From NCBI GenBank assembly GCA_043821285.1, contig JBDRCZ010000017.1:15947-79946 (forward strand): a DNA stretch of 64,000 nt, in the 5' to 3' direction. Under the pieces are notes generated by a model. That model was not told where the DNA came from and ran no database searches. It saw nothing but the letters and a program-made list of their open reading frames with translations. This stretch comes from Candidatus Omnitrophota bacterium (GTDB taxonomy: Bacteria; Omnitrophota; Gorgyraeia; B26-G9; JBDRCZ01). Positions 32,821-59,960 of the stretch are shown piece after piece. A program made the position numbers and the translations under genes. Position 1 is the first letter of the stretch, and each line of letters begins with the position of its first letter.

Positions 32821-33140
32821 ATTACATATATGCTTTCATTCTCGTATTGAGTATCGCGTATTAATGTTTTAAATTCGAAATCCGAATATCTAAATGTTTA
32901 GAATTTGCCATTCGTCATTATAAGTGTTTTATTTTATCTATCTAGTTGATCCTGTCTAATTCGTTCTCGTATTGCGTTTTTTTATTGTCGTCTACTTGTT
33001 TTTATACTCAATACTCGATACACAATACACAATGCGTTGTTTAATCATTTCTCTCCGTGTTCTCTGCGGCTCTGTGTGATAAATTTTAGCTTTTATTTTC
33101 TGTCTTCTGAATTCTGATTTCTGTTTTCTGCTGTTAACTG

Positions 33141-39581: not shown

Positions 39582-40054
39582 AAGTTAATAGCCTATCAGT
39601 TAATTCCAAATGTTCCGCCTATCAAACCGGCGGACAGGCAAATAATAAAATCCAAATGACAAATGAATCATTTAATATCTCAATCTAAAAATCAAAATGA
39701 TATATTAAAATTCAAATATTTTTCTCTTTGACAGGATTTACAGGATTAACATGATTTTTTATCCAGTTAATCCTGTCTATTTTCTTATTTTCTCTGTGAA
39801 CTTTGTGTTCTCTGTGGTTATAAATTTTTTTATTTTTTTTAATCGTAATACTCAATACATGCTACTCAATACGCATTACTTTTTATAGTGTGCTCTCTGT
39901 GGTTAAAATATTTTTTGTTTTTTTATCTACATAATCATCCGTATTCTACGCTCTCTTTTATATGCACTATTTTCATTACAATCATACATATTGTAACCGC
40001 TAATAATTACAATCTGTTAAATATATTTATAACAATTTTAATATATACAAGTAA

Positions 40055-40082
40055 AGTATACCATATTTTTCTGATTTTTCAA
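40055..40082 (-). promoter_or_regulatory. sigma70-like promoter for G2(-G1)
   Basis: Minus strand reads TTGAAA, 16-nt spacer, TGG-TATACT (extended -10). Near-identical to 59561-59589. About 470 nt upstream of the G2 ATG. Confidence 0.6.
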
Positions 40083-40421
40083 GGATTTTGCTAAAAAAAT
40101 ATAGAAAATAACAGATTAAAAGATTCAGGTGATCACGGTTTTAAAACAGTATCAAGGCATTATTTATAACTTATTTATTTATAATATATTATAAAATAAT
40201 TATCGAATATGCCTACATGTTAATTATTCGTGAAATTCGTGTAATTTGTTGTTTAAAAATAAGCAGTTAAAGTTTTTCTTTGTGTGATAAATTTTATTTT
40301 TTACCGCAGAGAAAATCTAAAAGAAATCTCGTTCACAGATGTATGTAAGTTACATCCACTTTCTATTCTTAGTGCGTTACGTAAACGGTAAACTGCCTGC
40401 CTCCCGTTAGGGAGGTAAACT

Positions 40422-40446
40422 AAAAAATTGCCATAGGCAATTTTTT
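40422..40446 (-). terminator. terminator hairpin after G3
   Basis: Minus strand reads AAAAAATTGCC-TAT-GGCAATTTTTT then AGTTTACC. Overlaps the stop codon by 2 nt. Confidence 0.55.
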
Positions 40447-47536: not shown

Positions 47537-47854
47537 ATGTTAATACCCTGTTAGTTAATTCCAAATGTTCTAATTCAAGATTTAAAAATTCCAAGATTCC
47601 AGATTCTAAAATTATAAAATTCCCCGCTACAAGGTCGAAGATCCGCCATCGTATTAGTGAAGAACGCTGGCGAACAGGCAAATTCTCTAACCTTCGGCAA
47701 GTAAAACGTTTTGAATCGTTAAATCTTAAAATATTCAAATTTTGGAATTGTTTGTTTTATTCTTCTGTCTTCTATTCTCTACCTTCTGTTTTCTGCTTTC
47801 AATCAGCTGTATCAGTAAACGGTAAACTGCCTGCCTTCCATTAGGGAGGTAAAC

Positions 47855-47879
47855 TAAAAAATTGCCGCAGCAATTTTTT
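47855..47879 (-). terminator. terminator hairpin after G4
   Basis: Minus strand reads AAAAAATTGC-TGCG-GCAATTTTTT then AGTTTACC. Confidence 0.55.
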
Positions 47880-50800: not shown

Positions 50801-53553
50801 ATAATTGCTGTTGGCTTGTTTTTAATGTTTCTTGCTTCTTCACAAGCCGCGATAATTTCTAATGGTTCATGGCCATTAATTTCAATAACATGCCAGCCAC
50901 AACCTCTCCACGAACCTGCGACATCCGCACTATCTACTTCTTTAGTCAAGCTATCAATTTGTGCGCCATTAGCATTTACAAATAAGGTAAGATTATCTAA
51001 CCCTAATTCCGCAATATGCCTGGCAGCCTCTGCATATTGTCCTTCCTGTTCTTCCCCATCACCGGCAATAGCAAAGACGTTGGAGTCACGTCCATGCATT
51101 TTAGCTAGAAGCGCCATACCCGCGGCATTGGAGAGTCCCATACCTAAGGAACCGGTCAAGGCTTCTATACCACGAGTACAAATCCAGTCAGTATGTCCAG
51201 GAAGTCCACTGTTTAACTCTCTTAAATGGGATAATTGCTCTTTTGAAATATAGCCAAGTTTAGCTAAAATAGAATAAACTGCTGGCGCTATATGCCCTTC
51301 AGAAATAACTAACCGGTCACGGTCTGGCCAGCGCGGGTCATTTGGTGTATGATTCATAATCCGCGTTCCATCGGAATATCGTCCAAGATATAAAGTGACC
51401 AGTATCTCAGCCGCAGAGAGCGAACCTCCTGGATGTCCTGAACCAGCTATATTAATCATCTCCAGAATATCATTACGGCACATTTCTGCGATTTTCTTTA
51501 ACATCAAGCTTTGGCGCTGCTGTTCTATATAGTCTTTTCGCCAAAAAGCACCAATTATCAAAACACCAACAAGAAATATAGTATATGCGATCAATAAATG
51601 TATTGGAGATTGAAACAGTGTCATTATTGGTATTGAAATGGTTTCAAAACGATGGCTAAATGTTTTTAGTAGTTCGACAAAAGCTAATAAAATCGCACCA
51701 ATTGTGCCCAATAAGGCATAGGGGTTGAATTGTCGAAGGGTTAAATCTTGAGGAAATATATCTGAATTGTGGGGTGAAACATTAGAATCATCCCCTTTCC
51801 TTTTTAAATATTCTATTGCTCCATTAACCACCAAAAGAGCCCTAAAATATGCCTCTAAATAATCTTCTGCTGTTGTAAGAATAATTTTTTGATCATCTAA
51901 TCCAGAACGTGCTATCGGGTGACCTAAAATGTTTTCGTTTTCAGCCATTCTTTGTGAAGCAATCTTCCGCATATGTGTCCAGTTATGAAGTTGATTTACG
52001 CCTTTCAGCGGTAATAAGAGAGGGTTTCTTATACCCTGTGAGGTATAAAATTTTTCAACATCCTCGTCTTTGAGACCTGTCTGCTCTGGCACAAAATGAG
52101 GAGTATCACTAGGATATGCAGCCTCTGCCAAAAAAACATTTGCTGTTATTCTCCCCGAAGAATAATGTTCTGTTACACATTTTAGGTAAAAAACCAATGT
52201 TCCATTTAAAGCAGAGTCAATAAAGCATACTTGCGATGTATTATTATCAATAATTCCTTCATCAATTAACTGCTCATAAGTTTGTTTTGCTTGTTCAGCA
52301 AAAACCGTGTTTGTTTTTAATGTTTCTTCAAAGGATTGTCTTAATTGTGGATAGAAATTTTCCGGATCTCCTTGTTCTGTAGTATTGCGGCGAACTTTTC
52401 GCAATGTGTCTTCAATAATCTTAAAATTGTCGCGTTTTCTTTTTTCCGGAGTAGGATGATCATCTCCTATATAACCTAACATTTTTCGATCAAGATAAAA
52501 TACAAAAGAATTATCAGGGGGAGCCCCTTTTGTCAAAAGACTCAAATAATACTCGGACTCATAGTAAATTGCTCCATCACGTGCTAAATAAACTCTTCGT
52601 CCTTCAGCAGGTAATTGTTCTAATAAATAAGGGATGATTTTAGCTGTGCCTATTAACCACATAAAAGAATCTTTTTTTTGTCTTGAAGTCAAAAAATGGC
52701 AAAGGCTTCTTAGCTTTATATTCAAACTTCCAGTAAATAAGCCTTGATTTCTTACACCTTGTTCTGTCATTACCAATAACTCTTGCTCTCTTCTTCGTAA
52801 TTCTTCTGCTATTTCTACGTTACTTCTCCATCTCAATTGGTCTGGTTTAAGAACTTGATAATGCGTGCGTACCTCATGCCCTTCGATCGGGCTTAAAAAA
52901 TGTATCGGAAATGTTGGACTTATTTCTGGTACATTAATAGAGGTTAACATCATTTCTAAATCCATGGCTATACCTTCTTCGCCGAGTGGATGTCTTAATA
53001 CTGATAATGCGCGCTCTTTAACTTTATCATTGGGGTCTTCCAATATTATTTTTTTCAAAAATTCAACAACCTTTGTTTTAGCTGTCTCACTTTTGTTCCC
53101 AACAATTCCCAAGAGCCGTATTAAATTACTGCGTGGATTGTCTAACACAACACCACCACGATAAAGAAGATCATCAGGGTCAATAATGGTTGGATCATCC
53201 CAAGCAGCGATTAAGGCATTTATCAGTATAATAGCATCGAGACTTAATAATTTTGGAGCTTCATTTCGTCTCCAAATATTAAACTGCGAAAAAGTTAATC
53301 TTAAAACTTGCGTTAGTTCTTCCCTTTTTATCTCTATAGGGTACTTATTTACTGATTGTGTAGATATACCAAGTGTATTTTGTTCAAAAGGCTCTGTAAG
53401 TGAAGACTTACTTATCTCTAAAGGAGGCGAGAGGTGGGTGGACAAATTTTTCAAATTACTATTTGCCGCCCATGAAATGTCAAGACATAAAAAAGAGTTG
53501 ATTAATATAAAGGCTGTTAGTTTGAATAAAATGTCCCGTTTTATTTTTTTCAT
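47878..53553 (-). CDS. giant-family protein G4 (1891 aa) with two tandem split-type transketolase units
   Basis: N-terminus MKKIKRDILFKLTAFILINSFLCLDISWAANSNLKNLSTHLSPPL; C-terminus ...EMLAVEQAI. TM cluster at aa 612-671, transketolase-like sequence from aa ~685 to ~1850. Confidence 0.85.
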   Translation of the reverse strand: MKKIKRDILFKLTAFILINSFLCLDISWAANSNLKNLSTHLSPPLEISKSSLTEPFEQNTLGISTQSVNKYPIEIKREELTQVLRLTFSQFNIWRRNEAPKLLSLDAIILINALIAAWDDPTIIDPDDLLYRGGVVLDNPRSNLIRLLGIVGNKSETAKTKVVEFLKKIILEDPNDKVKERALSVLRHPLGEEGIAMDLEMMLTSINVPEISPTFPIHFLSPIEGHEVRTHYQVLKPDQLRWRSNVEIAEELRRREQELLVMTEQGVRNQGLFTGSLNIKLRSLCHFLTSRQKKDSFMWLIGTAKIIPYLLEQLPAEGRRVYLARDGAIYYESEYYLSLLTKGAPPDNSFVFYLDRKMLGYIGDDHPTPEKRKRDNFKIIEDTLRKVRRNTTEQGDPENFYPQLRQSFEETLKTNTVFAEQAKQTYEQLIDEGIIDNNTSQVCFIDSALNGTLVFYLKCVTEHYSSGRITANVFLAEAAYPSDTPHFVPEQTGLKDEDVEKFYTSQGIRNPLLLPLKGVNQLHNWTHMRKIASQRMAENENILGHPIARSGLDDQKIILTTAEDYLEAYFRALLVVNGAIEYLKRKGDDSNVSPHNSDIFPQDLTLRQFNPYALLGTIGAILLAFVELLKTFSHRFETISIPIMTLFQSPIHLLIAYTIFLVGVLIIGAFWRKDYIEQQRQSLMLKKIAEMCRNDILEMINIAGSGHPGGSLSAAEILVTLYLGRYSDGTRIMNHTPNDPRWPDRDRLVISEGHIAPAVYSILAKLGYISKEQLSHLRELNSGLPGHTDWICTRGIEALTGSLGMGLSNAAGMALLAKMHGRDSNVFAIAGDGEEQEGQYAEAARHIAELGLDNLTLFVNANGAQIDSLTKEVDSADVAGSWRGCGWHVIEINGHEPLEIIAACEEARNIKNKPTAIIAKTKKGKGVDFMEDDPTAFHGRALNDKELSEAIPQIENTIENISQQMNFYGFSTDVDRFISDNQMTEQEENNLSKESTLQKTDTTTIPDRTNYAQDEEVSPSVAFKNRLLQWAEKDERIVFIFNNSDSKQRFIDEFIAQITDEDIRNKLIERCFLVEDREQHLASFAAGFGYSGMLPIVFLPENDAMKMLDQLRINAQARVPFILAAESEELSFTPGVMDLMHNVIALEPGDPNETNELTDMAIKNALLLAKITNKAPTSLNIPDEYTASYIRLSSADLPVIDRGENPQPEQGAYVISQSEGWDTAKKRVILISSGKSLHQTIKVSNELESQGTMTKIINVTQLDSLGAGSELLEYIEPGSRILTIYDGLPVCLGDAVSRTVTSSSKTAGSVVWSMSDKDIENIIEVAKELVDGKEKPTDGLMKIDFSPQEIFPAGMRLSLAAGIAFGAKMDTASGRVIALATEKEEREGQFAETARFAAHNGIDNLCLVLQASETNTELVNIWQAYGWRVIELNANNNQEQAEILGQTFEQLNKDNTGKPVLIITRGFDEHIMATTIMEALNGMVPYKIGEFNLLIYSNIKQTQEPEPVQMTMLQTPAEIRYQANRNFATRDGFGNRMLDWGKRVEKIIAFCADIASSTRLNWFARDFGIFSRHNTNGRYVPSGVREQAMAGIAAGLALYGKIPVIATFDCFANRMISQIIVIARAKLPVIVALSHAGLGVGPDGSTHQSVIVAGVIRYISFLQKMTGFIPADAREAEEAVDFAMHRALDGKGPSYLQLTRQNVPVLNRGENPSPEQGAYVIKDPRENGQNSDIIIIAAGAMVEFAIAASEQLESQDITAKVINLTRLDLIDEALPPLLERGVPIITVQDASPKILSGAVSKVVTSSLLTTGSTVTSLGIQGWGQSARSHEILYRAHKMDTAAIIEAAIKIVEQQRLDPHDNNPGQLTTMPKQPPALTELEWNEMLAVEQAI
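48004..49521 (-). other. G4 transketolase unit 2: truncated/degenerate PP part, intact Pyr + C-terminal domains
   Basis: The PP remnant has TEKEEREGQ where GDGExxEGQ is expected. The Pyr domain has ATRDGFG, VREQAMAGIAAGLA, GPDGSTHQ. The C-terminal domain has IIIIAAGAMV...AKVINLTRLD. Confidence 0.75.
49564..50511 (-). other. G4 transketolase unit 1, Pyr + C-terminal domains, degenerate
   Basis: Collinear with the unit 2 Pyr domain (shared DRGENPQPEQGAYVI / NRGENPSPEQGAYVI), but the GxDGxTHQ position reads ESEELSFTPGV. Confidence 0.6.
50719..51501 (-). other. G4 transketolase unit 1, TPP (PP) domain, motifs intact
   Basis: SGHPGGSLSAAEILVTLY, DRDRLVISEGH, GSLGMGLSNAAGMA, GDGEEQEGQYAEAARHIAELGLDNLTLFVNANG. 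Confidence 0.8.
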
Positions 53554-53751
53554 GATTTGTAGATATGTTTATCCATTCCAGATTTTAAAATTCCCCGCCA
53601 TAATGCGTTGACAGGCAGATTCAAAATTTAAATATTTTCTTTGAAACAAGTGTCACATGATTAATCTGATTTTTTATCCTTCTTTATCCTATTAATCCTG
53701 TCTATTTTTTCTGCTTTTTTGTCTTCCAAATTCTGACTTCTGTTTTCTATC

Positions 53752-55232
53752 ACAGTACTTTGTTAAAAATCAGGTCTTTTCAAAAAAATCATTTACGTAA
53801 GTCGTGAAAACTCATAACTTATGTAATTTCAATACTTTACGTTAATTTTTTCCTTGACAATATCCACAACTCCTGCTATGGTATATAGTTGTAATCAAAC
53901 CACCGTAACACACAACAGGAGGTGGATATGGGTATTTTTAATCTCACTATTTCGGTAATCAATAATTTCTTATTTCGTTTTAAACCTGCCTTCTCAAAAA
54001 AACAATTTATCGTTTTCTCCTTCCTGATCTATGCTTTGTTTAAAGACTACAAGAGAAATTCCCTTTATGCCCTCGCCTCTAAAACTCCAATCAACTATCA
54101 GGCTTGTCAGTACTTCTTATCTGAAGGAAAATGGAGTATCGATGATCTTAATAATATAAGGTTAAAAATTATTGAACATCAAAGAACTACTTCTGCTACT
54201 TCCTCCGGCGTCTTAGTTATTGATGATACTTCTCCTAAGCCTTTTGCTAAAGCTACCGCCGGTGCTAAACGTCAACACTGTGGTGTCTTAAATCGTGAAG
54301 AAATCTGTAATGTTGCTGTATTCTCTGCCTTCGCCTCCAAAACTAAACGCTTCCCGATAAACCTTAAATCTTATCTCCCCGCTGAAAAATTCTTATTTGG
54401 CAAAGAGGATGTAGATTTTAAAAGTAAGCTCGATCTTGCCCAAATATTAGTCGATGATGCCTTAGAAAGAAAAATTAAATTCTCTTCCCTCGTCATAGAT
54501 GCATGGTATGCTCAGTCTTCACAATTCCTTGAGTTTGTTCACTGCCAGAGAAAACTGCCCTTCATTGGTGAATTAAAGTCCAATCGTAACATCTTCTTTT
54601 ACCATCCGCTAAAGCGGAAACACTGCTGGATCCAGCAGGATGAGCTGGTGAAACTCATCAAAAAACATTATCCGCATAAGTGTAGGTTTTTTACCTCCAC
54701 GAGCAAAGATGGTAAGAAGAAGTCTTGGGTCTTCTACACCTTCAAGGGACTGCTGAAAGATTGTTCTGTTCCCTTAAGCATAGTGGTGATCTTTGGTAAG
54801 TGGGATAATCAGGATGATAAGAATGTTCATATCCTTATCTCCAATCAGACCCGCCTGGCTACTAAGACCATCATTTCCACCTACCTGCTTCGTTGGGGAA
54901 TAGAGCTTATCTTCAGGGAGCTCAAGGATGTCTTCTCCTTTGACCAATACCAGGTTAGACATACCAAACAGATCGAACGTTACTAGACACTATGCCTTAT
55001 TGCATGGAGCCTGTTATATTGGGTCAAACAAAATGCCTATCTTACCAAAATCCTTGAGCATAAACCTGCTACCTTCTATGACTACAAACAGGCCATTGAC
55101 TCCTTACTCCTTTATGATGCTCATCAGTCTCTTTCAAAGAACAGTCATCTTGCTCAGAAATATTTTAAAATTAAATCGGATAATTTTAAACAGCAAATCG
55201 CTCGCGTTGCCTGATTTTTAACAAAGTCCTGT
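53752..55232 (+). mobile_element. IS4/IS701-like insertion sequence (1481 bp)
   Basis: 23-bp terminal inverted repeats ACAGTACTTTGTTAAAAATCAGG (53752-53774) and reverse-complement ACAGGACTTTGTTAAAAATCAGG (55210-55232), 1 mismatch. Direct 6-bp flanks TCTATC (53746-53751 and 55233-55238). Confidence 0.8.
53922..55214 (+). pseudogene. DDE transposase (IS4/IS701-like) interrupted by an in-frame TAG
   Basis: VLVIDDTS, LVIDAWY, YLLRWGIELIFRELK blocks. TAG at 54984-54986, after which the same frame continues 75 codons (TLCLIAWSLLYWVKQN...QQIARVA) to TGA 55212-55214. Confidence 0.65.
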
Positions 55233-55287
55233 TCTATCATTTAAAACATATAGTAGACAGCAAACTGTACACTGTAAACGGTAAACT

Positions 55288-55312
55288 AAAAATTGCCGAT
55301 GGCAATTTTTTT
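55288..55312 (-). terminator. terminator hairpin after G5
   Basis: Minus strand reads AAAAAAATTGCC-ATC-GGCAATTTTT then AGTTTACCGTTTAC. Confidence 0.55.
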
Positions 55313-58300
55313 AGATTGCCTGTTCCACGGCCAAAACCGTATTCAATCCTACTCCTTCAAGTAGCGGAAGTAAAGACATCAATTTCTGCATAGGCTTTTC
55401 ACCCTGCTGTCTGCAACCATCTGGAGTGTCTTTTCTTTCTCCATCTTCCATGAAACTCTGAGAAGCTAAATATCTCATTAGTTCTCCTGTTTGATTAGGA
55501 TTGGTTACTCTTACTATCGTAATATTTTCAACTTTAAGAACTAATCGATCATTACCTCCACTCCAAAATTCATCACCAATATATATGTCAGCTGCTGCAT
55601 CTATTACAGCCGCGGCTTTATCTTCTAAGTTTTCAGTATGTTCTTCTACAAAATCTCCCATTTTTTCATCATAGATGAATTTATGATACCCCGGTTCAGA
55701 GGATATGGTATAAAGAACAAGATTTTTTAATAAACCCTGCTTATCTTTCGGGATAGCAAATAATACCTGGCCTTTTACATTAAATATGTTTCCGCCAGTA
55801 ATTATTCTTAGCTTATATCCAACCTCAAGTAAGTTAAGGAATGCATCCAGATTATCTTCTCCGATTATTCCCCAGTAAGGAACAAGTGTGCCATCCATAT
55901 CTATTCCTATAACCTGAATTTCTTCTAACGGTACATGGCCATTTATAATATCATGGACATTTAATGGAGTATTTTGGGTTGTATCTACTGGGGATAGCGT
56001 GCCAAGTGTTTGTTTTGGGACAAAACTGTTTTCTTGCTCACGCTTTGCTATAAATTTACGGTGTGCAAGGACAATAAAGGTAGAAAGTGCAAGACCTTTA
56101 CCCTGCAATTCTTCTACTGTTTCACGGTTATCTTTAAGCTGCGGATCTAAATATGCCGCCAATAATTGCATAAGCAAAGGTTCATTAAGTAATAAATCTA
56201 CTCCCACGTTAACTTCTTGATAAAGTTTTTTTGCCTTTACATAGTCTGAAAAAAGTTCTCCTAATAACGAGGATTCATTGGTTAATTCCGCATACAAATT
56301 ATCGAATATTTCTTCTACAGATATTAATATATCATTGTACATTTCATCAGAAAGATGGCTTCTTAAAAATTCTTCTTGTTCTTGTACTTTCCACGGAGGT
56401 AGATATTTACTTCTCAAACCGTATTGATTTAAACATTGCTCTAACTTATAAAAGATTATTTGTTCAAGAACACTCTCATTATCAACTTTACTGATCAAAT
56501 TTTCTGGCAAGCGGTTTTTAATAAGATTTTTAAGCAGTGTACCAGTCGCCGATGTACTCAATCCGGTTCCATCAGCAAGTGAGTTTGGTGTCCATTCAAA
56601 AGGCAGCCATTCTGACACAACTATTCCGTGAAGATACTCTCTTCCAAAAGATATTCTTCCTCTTGTTCCTAAACCAAAAGTGTGAAGTTGAATGCCAAAT
56701 TGTTCGTTAAGCTTAGCATTTGTAACAGTGGAAGAGTCAGAATTTTTAAGAAGAGCAGCGAAATGTGCTTCAACCTCTGCTAATGAATCAAGCAAACACC
56801 TTGCTTTATGAAGAGTTACACCAGTTTCAACAATATCATCAATTATAAGAACGTTGCGGTGTTCTCTGAGATACTCGACGACCTTTGTATCATTTAGAAA
56901 TAACCGCAGGTCTTCAGGAGAATCTAAAGAGTATACATCTCTTTCAAAACCCAAACGCACCCTTTCAGCTTCTGTCAATAATGACCAAATTATTGTTGTT
57001 AAATTTAACTTTTGAGTAATAATCCAACTTTGGAATTCAGGTATTTCCTTATTAAATAAGTTATTCGCTTTTAACTGAGTAAGCAAAATTTCCAATGCTT
57101 TGGCAATTGGATCAGCTCCTTTTGAGGGAAAGATAACTAAATTTATATCGTGTTGGATTAAATATTTAACAATAGGAAGAAGTATAGGAGCAAATTGCAA
57201 AACTTGTATGTCTGTTCCTAAAGAATCTATGTCTCCAATTTCTTCACCTAATGCAGCTTCGACCGCCTGCCGAAGCTTTCCAGTATATCTGGAGCGATAA
57301 GGACTACGCAGATATCCTTCAATCGTTGGCAAGTTTTTTGCGATCTCCTTTTCAAGCTCTTCTTCAGCCCTCAAAAACATCTGATGCCCTGTTTCTGTCC
57401 TGAATAAAGTTTCACCCAGAAAATTGCCGTCATCTTTGCCTGATTTTTCATAAAGTCTATACTCTTCTTCAAGGCGCTCTTTATTAGTTTTAAATCTGGC
57501 TCGGATCTGTTCAGGTGTTATTTCTATTCCCGCAGCTTCTAAATCAGCAATAATCCCTTGATAAGTACACATAAATAATCTGTCTGCCTCACGCCATACT
57601 GTTATTAATCTATAAAAAGAAGAAGCATTAGCAAAAGGCCCTTCAAAATTAAACAAAAACTGTCCTTTTTCATATAAAGAAGTATCAACACCCATATTTC
57701 TAAGCTCTACTAAGGCCTGTTCAATAGAAGGATTATCATGAGCTTTTACCACACCACAGATTAAATTTACATTTACATCAGTTGCACTTAAAATACCGGT
57801 TGAAATTAATTGTTGGATTAATTCCCTAATCATTTCGGGGGCTTTTTTCATATGCGCAAGCCTAAACGCGATTGTGTTCTGCGCTAATTCTTTTGCCTTT
57901 AACGAATTTCTCTGTTCAATTTTCTTGCGTATTTGAATAATTCTTGCCCGTGAGCCTTCTAACTTGGCGTACCCAATATCATGTAATAAGGCTAATATTG
58001 CTGCGTTTTTAAATTCTTCATAGGTAAAATCTTCTCCTAATCCAATCTGCACCGCGTTCTCTAAGACTTGAGTATGATGATTTACAGGGTTGCCATTTGC
58101 TCCAGCTTTAAAATGAGGTAAGGCGCTCCAAAAAAGTGTGAAGAGAATATTTTGAATTTCTTGTTTTTGCTGGTCTGTAAATGTGCGGTCTTTTTCAATG
58201 CGGCTTAGTGCATTTTCCAAATTCTGAACTGCTAAACTTTTCTTACACTGAACAAGATAGTAGCCATTCTTTTCTTCAATTACTGCTTCTAATCCATTGT

Positions 58301-59036: not shown

Positions 59037-59560
59037 AATAAATATCTCCAGTTATTTAATTTTAAATGTCCCGCCTATCAAACCGGCGACAGGCAAATGA
59101 ATCATTAAATAATTCAATCTTTAAAATTTATTTATGTAATTTGTGTGATTTGTTGTTAATAAAATAAGTACTTGAAATCTTTCTTTGTGTGCTCCGTGTC
59201 TCTGTGTGACAAATCTAATATTTTTGTTTCGCTTGTCCGCCGTGCTCTGTTTGGCGGGTCATTCTGGTTTCGTTATTCGTTATTAAATTATCCTGTCTAT
59301 CATCCACAATGATTGGCGGATCTTCAATTTTTTATATTTTCTCTGTGAACTTTGCGAGCTCTGTGGTGATAAATTTTTTATTTTTTTTTACCGCGATACT
59401 CAATACTCATTGCTTTTTATAGTGTGCGCTCTGTGATGATAATTTTTGTTTTGTTTTTTTAGCCACAATGCTCAATACACAATACCCGATACTTAATCAT
59501 ATTACTTTTCATAATGCCTTGTTATAAATAAATTTATAACATCTTTTAAATAGTTTTATA

Positions 59561-59589
59561 AGTATACCATATAATTACGCAATTTTCAA
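59561..59589 (-). promoter_or_regulatory. sigma70-like promoter for G5(-G4-G3)
   Basis: Minus strand reads TTGAAA, 17-nt spacer, TGG-TATACT. About 520 nt upstream of the G5 ATG. The flanks match the G2 promoter region. Confidence 0.6.
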
Positions 59590-59935
59590 GGGTTTGGGGA
59601 AATTTTTTTTGATTTTGTGATTTCTATGCTTATTGTTTTAACTATTTGGTATTAAAAAAGATATGGCATAGAAAATTAACAACAGCATTATTTAGGCAAG
59701 AATTGATTATATTTTTATTAAAGAAATAAATTGTAAGAGAAAATAATTATTACGATTAGATTTTATTGATTCTAAAATTTTAAATAAATTTTAACTTTAT
59801 TTTTCACCACAGAAAACACTGAGCCCACAAAGAAAAACTTGATACAAATCATACAAATATTTACATGCATAGCCTTCTTCCGTATAATCTGATTCTGCCT
59901 GCCTCCGGTAGGACGGTAAACAGTAAACGGTTAAC

Positions 59936-59960
59936 AAAAAGTTGCCATAGGCAACTTTTT
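59936..59960 (-). terminator. terminator hairpin after G6
   Basis: Minus strand reads AAAAAGTTGCC-TAT-GGCAACTTTTT then GTTAACCGTTTACTGTTTACC. Confidence 0.55.

Follow-up and report, generated by a model that had tools for sequence, protein, structure and literature searches.

The 64,000-nt stretch of contig JBDRCZ010000017.1 from a Candidatus Omnitrophota bacterium that we analyzed (the window) carries an insertion sequence (IS) in the spacer between two giant genes, G5 and G4. This element is very probably a single, structurally complete copy of the IS701 family with its own putative promoter and ribosome-binding site, which was inserted with duplication of its target site and was then most likely inactivated by a private TGG>TAG nonsense mutation in its transposase gene.

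A repeat finder returned one outstanding pair of inverted repeats (IRs), with arms of 23 nt at 53752-53774 and 55210-55232 that are 96% complementary (1 mismatch) and lie 1435 nt apart, just as a first-pass annotation of this DNA had described them. The arm sequence was found at no other site in the 64-kb window when up to 3 mismatches were allowed, and it gave 0 matches in 100 dinucleotide-preserving shuffles; the IS is thus present in a single copy in the window. Both arms are flanked by direct copies of TCTATC (53746-53751 and 55233-55238), in which the first-pass annotation had seen the target-site duplication. These repeats are present, but the identity is longer and spans the 8 nt TTCTATCA, for which the probability of chance occurrence, calculated from the local base composition, is about 4e-5, in comparison to about 5e-4 for 6 nt.

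The only long open reading frame (ORF) between the IR arms is located on the plus strand and comprises 354 codons from a GTG at 53922 to 54986. As the homologues and the Shine-Dalgarno sequence AGGAGG place the start at the ATG at 53928, 5 nt past AGGAGG and in agreement with the deposited annotation, this ATG is the true start, and the gene contains 352 codons before the TAG and not the 354 counted previously, whereas the position of the stop (54984-54986) had been given correctly. Past the TAG, the same frame is open for 75 further codons, as had also been noticed, and it ends with a TGA at 55212-55214 inside the right IR, exactly where the frame ends in the intact relatives. Upstream of the gene, both hexamers of a sigma-70-like promoter are kept in relatives and could serve the transcription of the transposase gene. 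Between the left IR and the -35 hexamer (53777-53860), there are several TTACGTAA-like palindromes (ACGTAA / TTACGT), which are likewise kept in relatives and may be bound by a regulator or by the transposase.

Judged by transposase homology, which is the family criterion used by ISfinder and NCBI, the element is to be assigned to the IS701 family. The protein obtained by reading through the TAG matched NF033540 (NCBIfam transpos_IS701, an equivalog model) with 180.7 bits at a cut-off of 150 (E = 5e-53), and the matching region, residues 13-365, spans the TAG. Pfam DDE_5 (PF13546) was matched with 78 bits at a cut-off of 27 (1e-21), whereas the hidden Markov models for IS4, IS1634, and IS1380 all remained far below their cut-offs (best IS4 model NF049925, 61 bits versus 250). 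Among 5.8 billion proteins, 497 relatives were detected, and the nearest of them are 73-84% identical, all 429 aa long, and cover 100% of the read-through frame. When an intact relative was used as the tblastn query, residues 1-429 aligned contiguously through the stop with 83.7% identity. The named members of this clade beyond Omnitrophota come from Patescibacteria and from the anammox bacteria Brocadia or Kuenenia, and the nearest annotated IS701 transposases in a plasmid collection are at most about 27% identical. Residues DD99/100, D191, and E326 (window numbering) are invariant in alignments of 19 and 42 sequences, and the predicted Tn5-like fold suggests that they are the catalytic residues. 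A complete Y(2)R(3)E(6)K motif, YLLRWGIELIFRELK, is present as well, and this motif does not vary among the 42 relatives.

The position of the premature TAG is occupied by Trp in 18 of 18 relatives, in which it belongs to the sequence ERYW, and in all 42 relatives of the larger alignment. At the nucleotide level, the four nearest relatives have CGTTACTGGAC with the codon TGG where the window has CGTTACTAGAC, so that one G>A transition accounts for the difference. Among the 120 best database matches, only the window's own protein (352 aa, 100% identical) ends at this position. As all 42 relatives have Trp and the four nearest ones have TGG, the comparison indicates that the TAG is a private nonsense mutation at an invariant Trp (residue 353), and thus a sign of decay and not a recurring recoding signal. 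The first-pass annotation had also favored decay and had named the presence of the TAG in all copies as the outcome that would point to programmed read-through; the relatives gave the opposite picture. With the TAG at codon 353 of a frame of 428/429 codons, the copy lacks the uninterrupted full-length transposase ORF that characterizes an autonomous IS.

The TAG is not the only private change. Two residues past the catalytic DD, the window has one codon fewer, with ACT in place of the ACATCT of the relatives. The motif DDT-xx-PK is found in 41 of 42 relatives, the remaining one has FK in place of PK, and none of them has a gap at this position. In addition, Tyr has replaced an Asn that all 18 other sequences have in common. 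The ratio of nonsynonymous to synonymous substitutions (dN/dS) of the 75 codons behind the TAG is 0.15-0.17 relative to the three nearest relatives (L001-L003), that of the part upstream of the TAG is 0.11-0.135, and the values among intact relatives range from 0.07 to 0.17, with a dS of about 0.6-0.8 to known relatives. Because the dN/dS of the codons behind the TAG resembles that of intact relatives, the stop appears to be young in relation to the divergence from known relatives, which is a relative age only.

These conserved codons bear on the question of whether the TAG is occasionally read, be it by programmed or context-dependent read-through, by a suppressor tRNA, or by pyrrolysine incorporation. 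The element would then produce mostly the truncated protein, which is possibly inhibitory, and traces of the full-length transposase, so that transposition would be throttled. Frameshifting is known to control transposition in IS1 and IS3, and read-through would be the stop-codon analogue of it. The intact 75 codons with their low dN/dS agree with such a mechanism, as does the stop of the full-length frame, which lies in the right IR exactly as in intact relatives. It is contradicted by the absence of the TAG from all relatives and by the use of TAG in the window, where it is an ordinary stop codon of the host genome. Three further ORFs with a minimum length of 150 aa terminate with TAG, and in one of them, which encodes a peptidase M50 fragment, the Pfam profile is completed at this codon. 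When translated with the standard code, none of the 28 long ORFs of the window, four of which encode proteins of 1241-2363 aa, is interrupted, and in-frame TAG codons are absent from about 20,000 codons of long host ORFs. The sole tRNA detected in the window is a tRNA-Gly, and none has a CUA anticodon. Since TAG terminates other genes and never breaks long ORFs, we rejected a recoding of TAG in the host genome. To our knowledge, there is no genetic code that reads TAG as Trp, and the searched literature yielded no link between Omnitrophota and stop-codon reassignment or between Omnitrophota and IS701. Occasional reading of the TAG is therefore a highly improbable explanation, and we regard the nonsense mutation as the cause of the interrupted frame.

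To what extent the mutation would affect function can be estimated from the predicted structure. For the relative P0001 (84% identical), an AlphaFold model calculated with the 42-sequence alignment had a mean predicted local distance difference test score (pLDDT) of 86.6 and a predicted template modelling score (pTM) of 0.86. In this model, Trp354 lies inside helix 347-369, directly after the long helix 313-337, in which both the catalytic Glu and the YREK motif are located, and further helices follow at 384-403, 407-414, and 419-428. The one-codon deletion falls where a loop of low confidence begins (residues 104-111, pLDDT below 50) and, according to the model, may be tolerated. The best structural match in the PDB was the Tn5 transposase-DNA complex 1MUH (E = 3e-12, TM-score about 0.55, about 434 aligned columns), which was matched over the full length and was followed at a distance by the Tn5 inhibitor protein and piggyBac. 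As a profile search of PDB sequences found nothing, the link to Tn5 exists at the fold level only. The residues D97, D188, and E326, which we take to be the catalytic residues of Tn5, are nearly collinear with those of the window transposase.

In Tn5, dimerization within the synaptic complex takes place through the C-terminal helical domain behind the catalytic Glu, and synapsis is lost upon C-terminal truncation. As this domain serves dimerization in Tn5, the 352-aa product is, by analogy, presumably inactive, despite keeping D, D, E, and the YREK motif. The truncation would strip the transposase of its last 75 residues, which constitute the C-terminal helical domain, and the copy is therefore most likely non-autonomous. 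With its ends intact, the element could still be mobilized in trans by an intact copy.

To define the ends of the element, we compared it with 17 loci that contain relatives, namely L001-L012 with transposases that are 73-84% identical to that of the window and L013-L017 with 53-54% identity. Wherever an element end was reached in the short contigs L001-L012, the left end was [CA or AT]G(T/G)ACTTTGTTAAAAAT and the right end was ...ATTTTTAACAAAGT(C/A)CT(G/A), and the flanks of the relatives diverged immediately outside of these shared ends. L001 (1482 bp) stops at both element ends, starting with CA and ending with TG, and the contigs of L016 and L017 both begin with CATTAC. Three long contigs contain a single insertion together with both of its flanks, and there the duplications directly abut CA...TG termini and read TTAGAG (6 bp; Ca. 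Brocadia pituitae AP021856.1), TCACTAA (7 bp), and TCCTTG (6 bp). The published end consensus of IS701 elements is ---YACT-Y--YR (De Palmenaer et al., 2008; PMC2266710), and the left end CAGTACTTTGTTA fits it at every specified position only if the element starts with the C at 53753, while the right end has a G in place of a Y.

Because the relatives have CA...TG termini, we place each end one base further inside than the first-pass annotation did. The IS thus most likely extends from 53753 to 55231 (1479 bp), with CA...TG termini, 22-bp IRs, and a duplication of 7-8 bp around them. In this case, A 53752 and T 55232 most likely represent the last and the first base of the duplication copies, respectively, and one of the 8 identical nucleotides may match by chance. 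The earlier version, an IS from 53752 to 55232 (1481 bp) with 23-bp IRs, ACAG...CTGT termini, and the 6-bp duplication TCTATC, draws on the fact that A 53752 and T 55232 are complementary and lengthen the IR, on the ACAG that is also found at the left ends of the relatives L006 and L003, and on the 6-bp duplications that are present in the clade. However, L003 has a C and not a T after its right CTG, and neither the three long-contig insertions nor the contigs that stop at the element ends nor the IS701 end consensus agree with a start at 53752. We therefore consider the 1481-bp version unlikely, although it deserves to be kept in mind. The boundaries are in any case correct to within one base, and the ends of the 17 related loci agree with the previously described ends to within 1 nt. 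The first-pass annotation had named deviating ends in other copies as the sign of wrongly set boundaries, and its ends thus withstood this comparison.

A side aspect of the ends is that the IR of the window is 4 bp longer than that of the relatives (53771-53774 and 55210-55213), since both arms differ from those of the relatives by complementary changes. In the left arm, the window has ...ATCAGG and the relatives have ...ATCC, and the right arm has CCTGAT with the TGA stop where the relatives have a TAA stop.

Removal of the IS together with one repeat copy results in a G5-G4 spacer of 270 nt, which is what had been anticipated, and the other short spacers between the giant genes are 341 and 320 nt long. 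For the empty site, the paralogous spacers of the cluster served as a substitute for an empty-site allele or an orthologous locus. On the minus strand, the reconstituted site, in which ...AATGATAGA is directly joined to AAACAGAAGTCAGAATTTGGAAGACA..., aligns gap-free to the G4-G3 (S43) and G2-G1 (S21) spacers, and the 11-nt block AGAAAACAGAA, which is invariant in all three spacers, straddles the junction. Judged from these sequences, the gap-free alignment and the 11-mer at the junction are what a clean insertion with duplication predicts. In the proposed course of events, a DDE transposase with a Tn5-like fold would have inserted the IS by a staggered cut, whereby 7-8 bp (TTCTATCA) of the spacer between the two giant genes would have been duplicated.

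There are several aspects that weigh against this overall picture of a probably inactivated element. The boundaries have been derived from relatives with 53-84% identical transposases and from paralogous spacers, as no second copy or empty-site allele was found. The truncated protein retains all three DDE residues and the YREK motif, and its inactivity is drawn from the analogy to Tn5. The dN/dS of the codons behind the TAG, which resembles purifying selection, fits a young mutation but also continued translation. Finally, the source is a metagenome-assembled genome, as is evident from the label of the database entry for the protein ("MAG: transposase [Candidatus Omnitrophota bacterium]"), and the TAG could be a consensus or sequencing error. 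If the TAG were such an artefact, or a minority variant that entered the consensus, the real element would encode an intact and active transposase of 428 aa. The TAG is just one base away from TGG, and the frame behind it is fully open and looks conserved, both of which would be expected for an artefact as well. On the other hand, residue 352 is also the last one of the protein that NCBI annotated on the deposited contig, and the TAG is therefore present in the deposited sequence. Moreover, the second private lesion, the 3-nt deletion, and the private Asn>Tyr exchange at an otherwise invariant site fit a drifting copy. An artefact thus appears quite improbable, and we maintain that the transposase gene has very probably been interrupted by mutation.

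The first-pass annotation had described the IS as lying antisense to the giant genes, between the terminator module of G5 and the leader of G4. This arrangement is correct, with the transposase gene on the plus strand and six tandem giant genes on the minus strand. The IS is positioned about 50 nt downstream of the hairpin that follows G5 and 192 nt upstream of the start codon of G4. The hairpin module is also present after the stop codons of G6, G4, and G3 (spacers S65, S43, and S32) and thus in four of the five spacers, with the G2-G1 spacer S21 as the one without it. On the minus strand, sigma-70-like promoters with an extended -10 region (TTGAAA, 16-17 nt, TGnTATACT) occur only in the long spacers (59589 to 59561 and 40082 to 40055), and neither the short spacers nor the 192 nt that remain upstream of G4 yielded a comparable minus-strand site; promoters of Omnitrophota are uncharacterized, and the promoter-like counts are at the level of shuffled sequences. 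As such promoters occur only in the long spacers, a reliance of G5-G4-G3 on one upstream promoter fits the layout. A polar effect of the 1.48-kb untranslated antisense insert on G4 and G3, which would uncouple them from that promoter as had been suggested, is plausible, but the evidence is weak. A consensus scan of both strands of 53300-55500, which contains the IS, detected no intrinsic terminator, and an intrinsic terminator in the IS on the strand of the giant genes was accordingly dismissed; any polarity would therefore have to come from Rho or from distance. A candidate G4 promoter at 55278-55250 on the minus strand was also dismissed, as it agrees with the consensus at 9 of 12 positions only, is not kept in the other short spacers, and belongs to a class of sites whose counts are near the shuffle expectation.

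The giant genes themselves (29833-63891, minus strand) encode proteins of 995-2363 aa. G4 and G5 share a nearly identical N-terminus of about 45 aa (MKKIK..ILFKLTA.ILIN.FLCLDISWAAN..LKNLSTHL.PPL), and the C-termini of all six proteins resemble IEQAI (EQAI or ERAI). A split transketolase is encoded within G4, and a methyltransferase within G5. The spacers are modular and paralogous to each other, in that the terminator hairpin is followed by GTTTACCGTTTAC and then by purine-rich ACAGAA repeats. In four of five spacers, there is also a conserved leader consisting of TTTGCCTGTC, a GC-rich hairpin, and GGCGGGRAATTT about 40-130 nt before the start codon. An Rfam search of the whole window matched only the tRNA-Gly and gave no match in the spacers or in the IS. 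The positions of all features are compiled in Table 1.

Table 1. Features of the insertion sequence and its surroundings (positions in the window).
Feature	Position	Strand	Basis
Left target-site duplication copy TTCTATCA	53745-53752	.	Identical 8-mer at 55232-55239
Left terminal IR CAGTACTTTGTTAAAAATCAGG	53753-53774	+	IR search; start at 53753 agrees with the IS701 end consensus
Putative sigma-70-like promoter of the IS: TTGACA, 17 nt, TATGGT, extended -10 TG	53854-53882	+	10 of 12 matches
Shine-Dalgarno sequence AGGAGG, 5 nt before ATG	53917-53922	+	Invariant among the aligned relatives
Transposase gene, 5' part: 352 codons with DDE and Y(2)R(3)E(6)K, ends at premature TAG	53928-54986	+
Site of the private 3-nt in-frame deletion (DDTSSPKP to DDTSPKP)	54228-54233	+	Alignment of relatives
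Premature stop TAG in place of the invariant Trp codon TGG	54984-54986	+	Alignments of relatives
Transposase gene, 3' remnant: 75 in-frame codons and TGA, C-terminal helices	54987-55214	+
Right terminal IR, overlaps the TGA stop of the full-length frame	55210-55231	-
Right target-site duplication copy TTCTATCA	55232-55239	.
Terminator-like hairpin AAAAAUUGCC-AUCG-GGCAAUUUUU directly after the G5 stop codon	55288-55310	-	-13.1 kcal/mol, z = -2.9
Remaining G4 leader from the IS to the G4 start codon, with conserved TGCCTGTC...GGCGGGG module	53554-53744	-	Module in three other giant-gene spacers
Spacers between the giant genes	59037-59958, 53554-55310, 47537-47877, 39582-40444, 32821-33140	-

Searches for further copies of the element or of its insertion site gave the following results. 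A protein search of the GTDB species-representative genomes detected no other copies of the IS. In the JGI metagenome contigs, there was no match for a 29-mer across the stop, written with TRG so that both TAG and TGG would be caught, and none for a 22-mer over the reconstituted empty site. When the last 400 aa of G5 were compared with the GTDB genomes to find host relatives with an uninterrupted orthologous spacer, none were obtained. Viral contigs, searched by protein and by IR pattern, gave nothing, and an exact-sequence look-up of the truncated protein of the window returned no record.

Most contigs with close relatives (L001-L012, L016, and L017) are 1.45-1.6 kb long and thus have almost the length of the element, whereas the copy of the window lies inside an 86-kb contig. 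Contigs of element length are typical of multi-copy repeats that break short-read assemblies. The context of an 86-kb contig suggests either a low copy number of the IS in the host genome or a long-read assembly. The contig of one relative, L011 (Logan SRR26701722, 1516 bp), opens (positions 1-60) with some 30 nt of the element's right end, followed by TTA (or TA) and the left end (...AACAAAGTCCTA-TTA-ATGTACTTTG...), and the contig ends with the same right-end sequence; L010:1-10 is a further instance. This junction of right and left ends points to a circle formed by excision, to copies in a head-to-tail tandem, or to a cycle in the assembly graph. Tn5-like hairpin transposition is not expected to produce circles.

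For the annotation of the deposited genome, our analysis means that the 352-aa "transposase" is to be marked as a pseudogene of an IS701-family transposase of 428/429 aa. Likewise, the G5-G4 "spacer" of 1.76 kb consists of a 270-nt spacer and an insertion, which bears on analyses of spacer modules or operons in the giant-gene cluster. Beyond annotation, the feature is an ordinary IS of little significance. The uncultured clade to which it belongs, found in Omnitrophota, Patescibacteria, and Brocadia-type metagenomes, blurs the published distinction between IS4 and IS701, which is a minor point for IS taxonomy.

In comparison to known systems, the window copy resembles the very common pseudogenized IS copies that carry a nonsense mutation, as it is structurally complete, has intact ends, and bears a single point nonsense mutation. 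It is like IS701-family elements in that its transposase passed the thresholds of NF033540 and DDE_5, that its length of 1479-1481 bp lies within the range of 1400-1550 bp, that it contains a single ORF whose end is overlapped by the right IR, and that its termini fit the family consensus. It is unlike them in its duplication, which is 7-8 bp long in the window and 6-7 bp long in the relatives of the clade, whereas almost all of the 27 elements surveyed in 2008 had duplications of "exactly four bps" (PMC2266710). The complete YREK motif of the window is a further difference, as most IS701 elements lack the Tyr of this motif, which is present in 4 of the 27 surveyed elements (PMC2266710).

With Tn5/IS50 of the IS4 family (1MUH), the window transposase shares the full-length fold, the DDE triad, the complete YREK motif, and the CA-type ends, but the two proteins are only 12% identical in the structure-based alignment. 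Duplications of IS4-family elements are typically about 9-12 bp long. The duplications of 6-8 bp in the group to which the window copy belongs overlap just the low end of the reported IS4 range, which is roughly 7-13 bp, with the ISPepr1 and IS50 subgroups at its low end (PMC2266710). The clade-wide duplications of 6-8 bp and the complete YREK motif lean towards IS4. As these traits are common to the whole uncultured clade and not special to the window copy, the sequences point to an undescribed subgroup.

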